From a virus (taxonomy: Duplodnaviria; Heunggongvirae; Uroviricota; Caudoviricetes), in IMG/VR virus record IMGVR_UViG_2695420792_000003: a DNA stretch of 4,999 bases, one strand, 5' to 3'. The translations under genes were made by a program, and so were the position numbers. This document shows positions 949 to 4,999 of this stretch, piece by piece. The notes beneath the pieces are model-generated. The model was not told the DNA's origin and did no database searches. It worked only from the letters and a program-made list of their open reading frames with translations. How positions within the stretch are numbered: position 1 is the stretch's first letter; each line of letters begins with the position of its first letter.

Positions 949-1044
949 TTTTCAGCACATTTGATTTCCAATAATCAACCAGCCATAATCATGCCATTGG
1001 GGCCTGAACAACTCCGGTGACTTCTGCGCTAAACGGGGACGTTT

Positions 1045-1146
1045 ATGCGCACATACAATCCAACCTCTCTTCTCCATTCACAGATGCAGAAATGCACCTG
1101 CGATATTTTGCATCCAGCGTTTGATCTCTGCGGAGGTGAAGCGTGA
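1045..1146 (+). CDS. Very short ORF (33 codons) whose stop overlaps the start of the NinB-like ORF (GTGA overlap); may be a remnant or leader peptide
   Basis: ATG at 1045 preceded by GGGGA (1035-1039); TGA at 1144-1146 overlaps the GTG at 1143-1145. Too short to judge coding potential; contains an inverted repeat. Confidence 0.15.
1084..1113 (+). repeat. Imperfect inverted repeat (ATGCAGAAAT ... ATATTTTGCAT) upstream of the NinB-like start
   Basis: Arms at 1084-1093 and 1103-1113 are near reverse complements, separated by GCACCTGCG. AT-rich stem, so unlikely to be a terminator; possible protein-binding site or RNA structure. Confidence 0.2.
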
Positions 1147-1397: not shown

Positions 1398-2329
1398 ACA
1401 GCCAGACCCGGACGCTGACGCTCGACCGTGAAATCACGCTGCCATCTTCCGGCACCACGCTGATAAGCCTGGTTGACGGGCAGGGGAGTCCGGTCAGCGT
1501 GGAGGTTCAGTCCGTCACCGACGGCGTGAAGGTGAAAGTGAGCCGTGTTCCTGACGGCGTTGCTGAATACAGCGTATGGGGGCTGAAGCTGCCGACGTTG
1601 CGCCAGCGCCTGTTCCGCTGCGTGAGTATCCGTGAGAACGACGACGGCACGTATGCCATCACCGCCGTGCAGCATGTACCGGAAAAAGAGGCCATCGTGG
1701 ATATTGAGAACACCCCTGACGGCATGCAGAGTCAGGTGCTGCTGGCGGCGGACAGGATTGCGATGGTTAATCCTGCGAATGGCAACACAAAACCGATGTT
1801 TGTTGGTCAGGGCGATCAGATATTCATGAACGACGTGTTCCTGAAACGCCTGACGGCCCCCACCATTACCAGCGGTGGAAATCCACCGGCATTTTCCCTG
1901 ACACCGGACGGAAAGCTGACCGCTAAAAATGCGGATATCAGTGGCAGTGTGAATGCGAACGCCGGGACGCTCAACAATGTCACGGTAAATGAAAACTGTA
2001 CGATTAAGGGCATGCTGGAGGCGACTCAGGTCAGAGGTGACTTCGTTAAAGCTGTATCCAAATCATTCCCGAAACAGGCTGGTACGTGGGGTAATACGGA
2101 AACACCAAACGGGACGGTTACAGTCACCATCAGCGATGATCATAACTTTGACCGTCAAATCATTATTCCGCCCATTATCTTTAACGGAATAGCGTATAGC
2201 GATCCGGGAAGTGGTAATAACCGATGCTGCAGGCTCAGCACGTGCCGCCAGCACGTCAGCCGGACAGGCCGCGTCGTCGGCTCAGTCAGCGTCTTCCAGC
2301 GCAGGAACGGCATCGACAAAGGCCCGTGA
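1361..2329 (+). pseudogene. J: Fragment of the lambda J-type central tail fibre / host specificity protein, internally deleted and missing both its N-terminal part and its C-terminal receptor-binding end
   Basis: Frame 2 (open from 1343) encodes [95 protein letters not shown] and later [63 protein letters not shown], matching lambda J as I recall it. There is no ATG (the track start is a TTG). The last 36 codons before the stop at 2327-2329 are stf DNA read out of frame. Confidence 0.85.
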
Positions 2330-4999
2330 AGCAGCAAAAAGTGCTGCTGCAGAGTCCTCAAAAAGCGCGGCAGCTACCAGTGCCGGTGCGGCGAAAACGT
2401 CAGAAACGAATGCGGCAGCGTCACAACAATCAGCAGCCACTTCTGCATCCGCCGCGACCACGAAGGCGTCAGAAGCAGCCACCTCAGCCCGGGATGCGGC
2501 GGCCTCAAAAGAGGCAGCGAAATCATCAGAAACGAACGCATCATCAAGCGCCAGTAGTGCCGCTTCCTCGGCAACGGCGGCAGGCAATTCCGCGAAGGCG
2601 GCAAAGACGTCTGAGACAAACGCCAGGTCTTCTGAAACGGCAGCGGGACAGAGCGCCTCGGCTGCGGCAGGCTCAAAAACAGCGGCTGCGTCGTCTGCCA
2701 GTGCCGCGTCAACAAGTGCCGGGCAGGCCTCAGCCAGTGCCACCGCCGCCGGAAAATCGGCAGAAAGCGCCGCATCGTCTGCTTCAACAGCCACAACGAA
2801 GGCTGGCGAAGCCGCTGAACAGGCCAGCGCAGCAGCGAGGTCTGCATCCGCAGCGAAGACATCCGAAACGAACGCGAAAGCCTCGGAAACCAGTGCAGAA
2901 TCCTCAAAAATGGCAGCTGCATCGTCCGCCAGTTCGGCGGCGTCATCGGCATCATCTGCGTCTGCTTCAAAAGATGAGGCGAGCAGACAGGCATCAGCAG
3001 CGAAAGGCAGCGCCACGACAGCATCCACGAAGGCGACAGAGGCAGCTGGCAGTGCGACGGCGGCATCTCAGAGCAAAACTACTGCTGAATCCGCTGCGAC
3101 CCGTGCGGAAGCTGCTGCTGATCGTGCTGAAGAGATTGCCGGTGCAGTTGCGATGGAAGACGCAAGCCTTACAACTAAAGGTGTTGTGAAACTTAGCAGT
3201 GCTGTTGATAGCACCAGTGAATCGCTGGCCGCAACGCCAAAAGCAGTTAAAGCAGCCAATGACAATGCGAATAGCAGGGTGCCATCTAACCGAAAAGTTA
3301 ACGGAAAAGCACTGACTGCGGATATAACATTAACGCCGAAAGATATTGGTACTTTAAATTCAGTAACGATGTCTTTCTCTGGCGGGGCTGGGTGGTTCAA
3401 ACTGGCTACGGTTACCATGCCACAAGCGAGTTCCATCGTTTACATCGCATTGATTGGTGGCGCTGGTTACAACGTCGGTTCCCCACATCAGGCAGGCATT
3501 TCAGAACTGGTTCTACGAGCAGGCAATGGAAACCCCAAAGGAATTACCGGGGCTTTGTGGAAGCGTACAGCCGTCGGATTAACGAATTTCGCCTGGATCA
3601 ACACATCCGGCGATACATATGATATTTACGTTGAGATTGGCAATTATGCGACGAGTGTAAATATCCATTGGGATTGTACTGCAAATGCGTCAGTTTCTGT
3701 TTATACCTCGCCAACATATTCAGCGAGTAAGCCTTCCAGCGTTACCTATGGTGTTGTTTATACGATGTATAGCTCACATCAGAAACCTACACCATCAGAT
3801 ATTGGAGCACTGCCAACAACCGGAGGAACAGTTTCAGGTCCGTTGTCTGTTACAGGTGGATTAACTGGTTCATTGAATGGTAATGCAAGTACAGCCACGA
3901 AATTGCAGACGGCAAGATCTATCGGTGGAGTTGTTTTCGACGGTTCTGCAAATATTAACCTTCCAGGTGTAAACACTACGGGTAATCAGAACACCACTGG
4001 TAATGCTGCAACTGCTACAAAACTCCAGACTGCAAGAAAAATATCCGGTGTTCCATTTGATGGTTCCAAAGATATTACTTTAACCGCCGCGCATGTGGCT
4101 GCTTTTGCCAGAAGGGCAACGGATACATATGCCGATGCGGATGGTGGCGTTCCCTGGAATGCCGAATCAGGCGCTTACAATGTCACCCGCTCTGGCGACA
4201 GCTATATTCTGGTTAACTTCTATACCGGAGTCGGAAGTTGCCGGACCCTGCAGATGAAGGCGCATTACAGAAATGGTGGTCTGTTCTACCGTTCTTCAAG
4301 AGACGGTTATGGTTTTGAGGAAGGCTGGGCAGAAGTTTATACCTCGAAAAATCTTCCACCAGAAAGCTACCCAGTCGGCGCACCAATCCCGTGGCCATCA
4401 GATACCGTTCCGTCTGGTTATGCCCTGATGCAGGGGCAGACTTTTGACAAATCTGCTTACCCGAAACTTGCAGCCGCTTATCCGTCAGGCGTGATCCCTG
4501 ATATGCGTGGCTGGACGATTAAGGGCAAACCTGCCAGTGGTCGGGCCGTATTGTCTCAGGAACAGGACGGCATTAAATCGCACACCCACAGCGCCAGCGC
4601 ATCCAGTACGGATTTGGGGACGAAAACCACATCGTCGTTTGATTACGGAACCAAATCCACGAATAACACCGGGGCGCATACCCATAGTATTAGCGGGACC
4701 GCAAATAGTGCCGGTGCGCACCAACACAAGAGTTCCGGTGCATTTGGTGGCACGAACACGAGCATTTTCCCTAATGGTTATACCGCGATTTCAAATCTAA
4801 GCGCGGGGATTATGAGCACAACAAGCGGTAGTGGCCAGACTCGTAATGCAGGGAAGACATCATCAGATGGTGCTCATACCCACTCGCTGTCCGGCACTGC
4901 TGCAAGCGCAGGCGCACATGCACATACTGTCGGTATTGGTGCTCATACGCACTCCGTTGCGATTGGCTCACATGGACACACCATCACCGTTAACGCTGC
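2193..4999 (+). CDS. stf: Side tail fibre protein, Stf / StfR-like (lambda Stf family with T4 gp37-like C-terminal tip); 5-prime end replaced by the J fragment, 3-prime end runs past the window
   Basis: Frame 3 is open from the TAG at 2190-2192 to the window end. Translation [18 protein letters not shown]...AAKTSETNA...TATKLQTAR...[72 protein letters not shown]...[11 protein letters not shown] matches lambda Stf and E. coli StfR as I recall them. The only start-like codons in frame are a GTG at 2211 without a good SD and an ATG at 2910; the normal Stf N-terminus is absent. By my recall of the lambda Stf C-terminus, about 20 codons remain beyond the window. Confidence 0.9.
2230..3130 (+). repeat. 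Ala/Ser/Thr-rich low-complexity shaft repeat zone of the tail fibre (recurring AAK(T/S)SETNA units)
   Basis: Four copies of the AAK[TS]SETNA unit, at about 2389, 2514, 2599 and 2851, within GCN-rich sequence. The zone is free of stop codons in several frames on both strands. Confidence 0.7.
3885..4082 (+). repeat. Two tandem copies of a roughly 40-residue phage tail fibre repeat
   Basis: [26 protein letters not shown] (about 3885-3962) and [26 protein letters not shown] (about 4005-4082), period 120 nt. Conserved at the protein level but diverged at the DNA level. Confidence 0.7.
4581..4979 (+). other. C-terminal tip region with seven His-x-His motifs (gp37-like putative metal-binding receptor-binding needle)
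   Basis: In frame: SHTHS, AHTHS, AHQHK, AHTHS, AHAHT, AHTHS, SHGHT, between codons at 4581 and 4979. Confidence 0.7.

Follow-up and report, generated by a model that had tools for sequence, protein, structure and literature searches.

The small open reading frame before a truncated ybcN gene is ylcH of phage 82 and DLP12 and lies in a conserved, structured leader

In the isrK locus of the Salmonella prophage Gifsy-1, coupling of anrP to the small upstream gene orf45 through a sequestered ribosome binding site (RBS) has been shown experimentally (Hershko-Shalev et al. 2016, PMC4825925). In phage lambda, the entry to the nin region holds tR2 (lambda 40596-40629, here L193 697-730), which reads AGGCCTGCTGGTAATCGCAGGCCT and then TTTTATTT and stands directly before the Shine-Dalgarno (SD) sequence of ninB. 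A short open reading frame (ORF) in front of a ybcN-type gene is on record for phage 82, where GenBank entry X92588 gives in this order a putative -35/-10, a 'possible regulator-binding site', orf33 at 134-235 and orf151 at 232-687. The present work deals with the counterpart of orf33 in a viral DNA stretch of 4,999 nucleotides (IMG/VR record IMGVR_UViG_2695420792_000003, Caudoviricetes; hereafter the window), in which a 33-codon ORF is followed by the beginning of a NinB-like gene, ybcN'. The ORF is ylcH; it is kept open in all related loci examined although its peptide drifts, and it lies in a leader of four hairpins that would occlude the start regions of both genes. The two genes are:

1045-1146, + strand: ylcH (orf33 of phage 82), 33 codons and a TGA that overlaps the GTG of ybcN
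1143-1367, + strand: ybcN' (NinB/Orf family), N-terminal 75 codons only

The ORF starts with ATG at 1045-1047 on the + strand, contains 33 sense codons and ends with TGA at 1144-1146, which overlaps the GTG of ybcN' at 1143-1145; upstream, its frame is limited by an in-frame TAA at 1030. GGGGA at 1035-1039 precedes the ATG, and the SD sequence of ybcN (GGAGG, 1132-1136) is located inside ylcH. The initial annotation had placed the ORF, its start, the SD-like sequence and the stop/start overlap correctly, and had considered the ORF too short to judge; that last remark does not hold, the ORF being an annotated gene (orf33 in X92588, YLCH_ECOLI). By sequence comparison it is the already catalogued YlcH of the DLP12 prophage of E. 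coli K-12, which is orf33 of phage 82 (protein CAA63326.1; 134-235 of X92588 corresponds to 1045-1146 of the window). The window peptide shares 28 of 33 residues with K-12 YlcH (93% identity at the DNA level) and 29 of 33 (87.9%) with that of phage 82. In K-12 MG1655 the counterpart is situated between ybcM and ybcN in DLP12. Its peptide is entered in the protein collection as 'Uncharacterized protein YlcH, YLCH_ECOLI', the window's own peptide appears there as 'hypothetical protein' from about 1000 contigs, and in strain ML35, with a 100% match to the window, the Prokaryotic Genome Annotation Pipeline (PGAP) annotates the ORF as WP_072097297.1. In the literature, ylcH is given as 'hypothetical protein, DLP12 prophage' (PMC2646356). 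No family for the peptide was found in Pfam, NCBIfam or PHROGs, and no recorded function was found for YlcH. Positions 940-1400 of the window match 3469 of 5426 complete E. coli genomes, with ML35 and others at 100%, and the 114-nucleotide region of the initial annotation alone matches 4204 of them. Because the ORF has been catalogued since 1996 and about 4200 of the 5426 complete E. coli genomes carry a match, its mere presence is ordinary.

In order to follow frame and overlap across related loci, loci encoding YbcN relatives were taken from 80 viral contigs near K-12, from 22 genomes of other species (Enterobacter, Citrobacter, Phytobacter, Raoultella, Scandinavium, Siccibacter, Pseudocitrobacter and Pseudescherichia, with YbcN protein identity down to 60%), from 80 more divergent viral contigs, and from phages phi80, HK225, CobraSix and one Klebsiella phage. 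The resulting 186 loci are all those of the collected YbcN-type loci with enough upstream DNA and represent at least nine enterobacterial genera. A TGA overlaps the ATG or GTG of ybcN, as (A/G)TGA, in 186 of 186 loci; in the same 186 the ylcH frame is open, started by ATG and 30-34 codons long, a few loci having an extra upstream ATG. A 4-nucleotide stop/start overlap is ordinary by itself. Together with the ybcN SD inside the ORF it forms the translational-coupling arrangement that had been proposed for the window alone, and this arrangement is conserved throughout the set. By the initial annotation, an unconserved reading frame or a missing overlap in related loci would have spoken against the reading; both features were retained in every locus.

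Among the 95 unique ORF sequences, the number of distinct stop sites is 0 in the ylcH frame, compared with 11 and 15 in the other two frames, and none of 5000 column permutations of the alignment left every row open. All insertions and deletions that change the length of ylcH are multiples of three: the distance from the ATG to hairpin H3 (see below) is 33, 36 or 39 nucleotides, and that from H3 to the end of the ORF is 60 or 63 nucleotides. Full-length ylcH is present in isolated, viable phages, namely phage 82, HK225, phi80, 4A7, the PhiR series and CobraSix. Loss of ybcN goes together with decay of the ORF, as seen in a module copy beside fliE. This second, decayed copy occurs without ybcN in about 1300 E. 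coli genomes; it consists of emrE-ybcL-ybcM and the ylcH leader, adjoins an IS200/IS605 tnpA or TnpB gene, and was seen between fliE and yedK at 3037-5120 in E. coli AR_0374 and G749. In its ylcH leader, which is 77% identical, the ATG has become ATA, codon 6 is a stop and one nucleotide is inserted.

Selection on the peptide was compared with that on YbcN in 139 ylcH+ybcN haplotypes. The pooled ratio of nonsynonymous to synonymous polymorphism (pN/pS) is 0.92 for ylcH vs 0.31 for ybcN, and in close pairs it is 1.3-1.7 vs 0.11-0.21. The entropies of codon positions 1/2/3 are 0.77/0.72/0.63 for ylcH and 0.43/0.33/0.94 for ybcN; the first set lacks a coding pattern, and the second shows the usual one. 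Neither a pN/pS well below 1 nor a third-position excess, by which purifying selection is recognized, was found for ylcH. Codons 2-12, which are unstructured, have a pN/pS of 1.15 with normal synonymous divergence, and the centre of the gene shows low divergence at all three codon positions. Other lineages have different residues in place of the three cysteines and at most other positions, the cysteines being exchanged wherever H3 covaries (QKCTC to AKATG, LSGTC or AKVTC). A zinc-binding CxC...H...C motif was ruled out on the ground that the cysteines are not conserved. Outside the E. coli group, (D/G)FLHSA forms a nearly invariant block; within that group, DILHPA, NSLHLA and DILYPA occur. The distance of the block to the stop differs by one residue between types. 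This conservation is not creditable to the peptide because the synonymous sites of the block are conserved too. Taken together, these comparisons of sequence show a peptide that evolves almost neutrally in a frame that would be kept open without selection on the peptide.

The leader RNA contains four hairpins, of which two are firmly supported by covariation; it belongs to no Rfam family. A search of Rfam with positions 850-1400 returned mir-33 as the sole hit (15.4 bits against a threshold of 50, E = 1.4, minus strand), which is at chance level and merely reflects hairpin H3. The elements within and around ylcH are:

1025-1051, + strand: hairpin H2, UGCGCUAAACG-GGGA-CGUUUAUGCGCA, from folding and covariation
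1078-1103 (core 1081-1100), + strand: hairpin H3, CAGAUGCA-GAAA-UGCACCUG, from RNAalifold and covariation
1083-1114, + strand: inverted repeat of the initial annotation, GAUGCAGAA...UUUUGCAUC, an alternative pairing that excludes H3
1117-1144, + strand: hairpin H4, GCGUUUGAUCUC-UGCG-GAGGUGAAGCGU, from folding and comparison

The modelled folds show that conserved hairpins, H2 and H4, would occlude the start regions of ylcH and ybcN, respectively; neither hairpin had been included in the initial annotation. In H2, the ylcH SD (GGGGA, 1035-1039) is placed in and beside the tetraloop and the ATG in the 3′ arm. The fold of the window has a predicted energy of -14.4 kcal/mol (z = -5.1). In 29 unique versions with entirely different stems the median is -14.6 kcal/mol, and 26 of them have a paired ATG. 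Changes on both sides were counted at all 10 pairs of H2 in a model-fitted alignment, which leans towards structure. Despite the complete turnover of the H2 sequence, the ATG and a G-rich SD 5-6 nucleotides upstream of it are kept in every lineage; in the phi80 annotation, H2 is repeat IR4. The whole of H4 falls within the 3′ end of ylcH; it pairs the ybcN SD and the first two bases of the GTG (-14.2 kcal/mol, z = -3.5 in the window). In 46 of 48 unique versions, the pairing takes in 4-5 of the 5 SD bases and two or more bases of the start codon; the median energy is -15.3 kcal/mol. One covariance model spanning H2 to H4 aligned H2 and H3 well and left two H4 classes out of register. Therefore, H4 was analysed class by class: the two register classes have different arms, for example GCGUUUGACCUC/GAGGUGAAGCGU and GCGGUUUCC/GGAGGCCGU, and the second, ATGA class has compensatory changes at 4 pairs.

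For H3, pairs were counted in a MAFFT alignment of 105 distinct leaders that had been fitted to no structure. The cells are paired to 98.1%, changes on both sides occur at 7 of 9 pairs, and 138 cells are compensatory; 0 of 500 shuffles reached this support, and in slid controls at most 35% of the cells were paired. The hairpin has a GNRA loop and a conserved A-C mismatch. The embedded inverted repeat noted initially is real both in the sequence and in the fold. Its arms (1083-1091 and 1106-1114, 9 nucleotides each) are 89% complementary, and in the RNA it gives the local minimum-energy fold (-11.9 kcal/mol, z = -3.6 vs dinucleotide shuffles). It is, however, not a conserved element: in the 105 sequences it shows 0 compensatory changes and 84.0% paired cells vs a shuffle mean of 84.3%, and it is broken in 35-47 of them, whereas the overlapping H3 covaries. 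Both pairings use the same 5′ strand, and the inverted repeat is the more stable one in the E. coli and phi80 types, in which it may be an alternative conformer. As judged from this alignment, it is H3 that evolution has kept, not the inverted repeat. The linker between H3 and H4 (1101-1119) reads GAUUUUCUGCAUUCUGCG in most lineages and GAUAUUUUGCAUCCAGCG in the window and is near-invariant, including its synonymous sites.

Upstream of and between these hairpins, three further elements were noted:

961-989, + strand: putative sigma-70-like promoter, TTGATT, 17 nucleotides, CATAAT
993-1021, + strand: hairpin H1, loop CCUGAACAA conserved, stem variable
1051-1080, + strand: G-free, C-rich, unstructured linker, codons 3-12 of ylcH, encoding a hypervariable peptide

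The promoter-like element has 9 of 12 matches and is the only hit in 850-1400; it coincides with the putative -35/-10 of X92588. At least 8 of 12 matches with a NATAAT -10 were found in 111 of 116 unique upstream segments. H1, which begins 0-6 nucleotides past the -10 element, is labelled 'possible regulator-binding site' in X92588. Its loop core CUG(A/G)(A/G)CA is kept while the stems differ wholly between lineages (for example GUCACCGGAG/CUCCGGUGAC vs UCUGCCAG/CUGGCAGA). In the window, G-U pairs weaken its left arm, and the fold has -8.5 kcal/mol (z = -0.8). With a conserved centre and varying arms, H1 shows the reverse of the operator pattern and is unlikely to be a palindromic operator. 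A nut/boxB function was also rejected, the nutL core of phi80, CACG-UAAA-CGUG, being unrelated. CTGAACA is not enriched in phi80 (11 matches vs 6 expected, at least 11 being reached in 4 of 100 shuffles). The known prophage small RNAs AgvB, AsxR, the Pas small RNAs and STnc100 were considered and set aside, as they are located downstream of pR′ or elsewhere. The pattern of loop and stem conservation suggests that H1 is an RNA element read by some partner. Two or three H1-type hairpins stand in tandem at three loci (L099, L102 and L105), and a UUCUGCG that resembles the H3-H4 linker follows H1 at 1019-1029. The linker 1051-1080 contains 0 G and 12 C in 30 nucleotides; 59 unique linkers, variable in sequence, together have 36% C and 6.5% G. 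Such a composition would be fitting for a rut site, at which Rho loads, or for a stretch kept unstructured on purpose.

On balance, and with slightly better than even confidence, we favour the view that ylcH is the translated leader ORF of the ybcN-type nin module and is coupled to ybcN by RBS unmasking, the act of translation being what matters and not the peptide. H4 would hold the SD and the start codon of ybcN base-paired; a ribosome translating ylcH would melt H3 and then H4 and terminate at the UGA overlapping the A/GUG, and ybcN would be initiated on the exposed site. Because H2 would lock the ylcH start, the leader is expected to keep ybcN expression low unless H2 is opened, and the nin genes behind ybcN may be restrained likewise. 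We infer the translation of ylcH, the dependence of ybcN translation on it, and whatever opens H2. The leader occupies the place that tR2 has in lambda, where no such leader is present. In the window the device would be a relic because ybcN breaks off at about codon 75.

Several observations weigh against this view. No direct evidence of ylcH translation was found in the literature (ribosome profiling, tagging). The ybcN SD is strong (GGAGGUG, 6 nucleotides from the GTG) and could act alone when H4 breathes, and H2, with about -14 kcal/mol over the ylcH ATG, would itself strongly suppress ylcH translation. One alternative frame is also open in 72 of the 95 unique sequences, and the openness is therefore owed partly to constrained, G-poor sequence. 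Structural constraint lowers pS and so inflates pN/pS in the hairpin parts, although the unstructured N-terminal part still gives the 1.15 stated above. The fold of the whole leader in the window reaches a z of no more than -1.6 vs shuffles. A weakly conserved 'LH' in the peptide is without explanation, as is the invariance of the H3-H4 linker, for which no pairing partner or function was found.

Of the other explanations, a transcriptional gate equivalent to lambda tR2 is the most probable, though unlikely. The untranslated leader would terminate transcription through Rho at 1051-1080 or through H3 and its U-rich tract, and translation of ylcH or an N-modified polymerase would suppress this termination; such a gate could act alongside coupling. 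The leader has the same position as tR2, and a transcriptional component is possible because the linker, with no G in 30 nucleotides in the window and its C-rich, G-poor composition in the 59 versions, would suit Rho loading on untranslated RNA. A scan returned a terminator-like site at 1085-1102 followed by AUAUUUUG. Moreover, adequate expression of the downstream gene rusA in DLP12 reportedly requires an inserted promoter (PMC4118853), which agrees with a restrictive leader. H3 is nevertheless weak as a terminator (about -9 kcal/mol, with its A-C mismatch and an interrupted U-tract), a single terminator-like hit is within the shuffle expectation (mean 0.5), a rut site is not recognisable by composition alone, and no termination data were found. 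It is improbable that YlcH is instead a functional small protein whose sequence matters, either as a partner or regulator of YbcN or as a ribosome-stalling nascent peptide. The universal conservation of ORF, SD and length, the near-invariance of (D/G)FLHSA outside the E. coli group and the listing of the protein by PGAP and UniProt would fit this idea. It is contradicted by a pN/pS of about 0.9-1.7 without third-position excess and by a block that is conserved at synonymous sites too, is broken in the E. coli variants and varies by one residue in its distance to the stop. The cysteines are moreover replaced where H3 covaries, and the peptide has no family in the three collections searched.

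Marginally less probable again is that ylcH is untranslated, the RNA being a structured non-coding leader or a small RNA from the conserved promoter and the open frame a by-product of G-poor sequence. Four conserved hairpins, with covariation strongest for H3 and H2, a conserved promoter directly before H1, the lack of a coding signature and the alternative frame open in 72 of 95 sequences are in line with this. Against it stand the stop sites, none in the ylcH frame vs 11 and 15 in the others, an ATG and SD kept in every lineage though the H2 sequence changes completely, length changes that are all multiples of three, and a stop that always overlaps the ybcN start. Almost no credence is given to the remaining idea, put forward initially next to that of a leader peptide, that the ORF is the remnant of a larger gene once present before ninB. 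The window does belong to a heavily rearranged prophage in which ybcN and the lambda-J-like gene are both fragments. The ORF, however, has the same length and the same ends in phage 82, K-12, HK225, phi80 and 180 further loci, including complete phage genomes. The remnant reading was rejected because 30-34 codons are full length by comparison with every homologue, viable phages among them; the leader peptide is the better of the two initial options, frame and overlap being kept in homologous loci.

With ylcH taken as a translated leader ORF coupled to ybcN, a wider proposal can be made, which is tentative and which we regard as possible but rather doubtful. The region 961-1146 (about 190 nucleotides) may be an undescribed cis-regulatory RNA module, a translation-dependent gate that replaces lambda tR2, whose position the leader occupies, and decides on passage through the nin genes towards Q. 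Its parts would be its own promoter, H1 with the conserved loop recognised by some factor or RNA, H2 as a start-codon lock, the G-free stretch possibly loading Rho, a translated, sequence-free ORF, and H4 as a lock on the ybcN RBS. If this gate model were true, it would explain why ylcH persists despite sequence drift, how ybcN-type phages restrain entry to nin and Q without a lambda-type tR2, and why the rusA operon of DLP12 stays silent as long as no inserted promoter drives it from a position behind the leader. Under this model, ylcH would also be better annotated as a leader ORF than as an uncharacterized protein.

The window is of mosaic make-up around the leader. In ML35 it forms, with icd as neighbour, part of a mosaic element, and the ybcN piece of the window ends at a joint:

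1364-1371: junction of ybcN' with a lambda-J-like tail-tip gene fragment, recombination joint

Genomes with intact ybcN align only up to 1367-1371, and PGAP treats both the ybcN piece and the J-like tail-tip piece as pseudogenes. The lambda Orf/NinB family includes ybcN as a diverged member (PMC4118853). The NCBIfam model PRK09741 (YbcN subgroup) matches ybcN' over positions 1-76 of 151 (E = 3.8e-39), its score of 134 bits remaining below the cut-off of 164 because ybcN is truncated. PHROG 72 is matched with E = 1.7e-21, and the match to Pfam NinB is weak (E = 0.14). A second joint at about 2222 fuses the J-like fragment to a tail-fibre gene, whose long Ala/Ser-rich repeat region (2224-3190) is a source of long spurious antisense ORFs. 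Upstream of the leader, a 169-amino-acid ORF at 439-948 corresponds over its full length to PHROG 1779 (function unknown, E = 1e-102); it occupies the slot that holds the ybcL-ybcM cargo in K-12, and its stop lies 13 nucleotides before the promoter-like element. The minus-strand ORFs 1029-1298 and 1043-1189 run antisense to ybcN, whose coding signature is clear, and are in no annotation. The same nin operon contains a second small ORF, orf45/ylcG, in the ylcG-quuD region of K-12; orf45 of phage 82 (L001 1496-1636) and the Q antiterminator gene share 4 nucleotides at the start of the latter.

Compared with the systems described so far, the closest relative is YlcH of K-12, or orf33 of phage 82, which is the same gene, with 33 codons and the GTGA overlap directly before ybcN/orf151. 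In the window, in contrast, only a truncated ybcN follows, joined to a piece of a tail gene, and the upstream neighbour is the PHROG 1779 ORF in place of ybcL-ybcM. Lambda tR2 is found at the same lambdoid position, before a gene of the Orf/NinB family and at the entry of transcription into the nin region. It is a GC-rich hairpin with a U run in a 73-nucleotide gap between ren and ninB that contains no ORF, whereas the ylcH leader has about 150 nucleotides with four hairpins, a promoter-like element and a frame that is probably translated, and nothing in it scores as a good intrinsic terminator. A search of lambda with the covariance model of the leader gave no match. The attenuator leader peptides trpL, hisL and pheL and the pyrBI leader also comprise a short ORF in a structured leader, in which translation reshapes folding. 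The YlcH peptide differs from these in having no runs of regulatory codons, and the leader has no covariation-supported terminator/antiterminator pair, since of the mutually exclusive H3 and inverted repeat only H3 covaries. In addition, ylcH overlaps the start of the structural gene, while attenuator ORFs end upstream of the terminator.

In its presumed mode of action, the leader resembles isrK-orf45-anrP of Gifsy-1. Both are prophage leaders with their own promoter (here a predicted one), a structured 5′ RNA and a small upstream ORF with a sequestered RBS, and the downstream gene is translated only via coupling in Gifsy-1, as would be the case for ybcN. The two loci are unrelated in sequence. 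Gifsy-1 differs in that the structure is opened in trans by a short, terminated form of the leader RNA and that the downstream gene encodes an anti-repressor instead of an Orf-family recombination mediator. As in the RBS-unmasking type, ylcH overlaps the downstream start, and the SD and start are, by prediction and comparison, sequestered inside the ORF. The structured, gated leader appears to be undescribed and its mechanism to be of a known kind, to which the comparison adds a clean example of an ORF that is kept open with no selection on its peptide.

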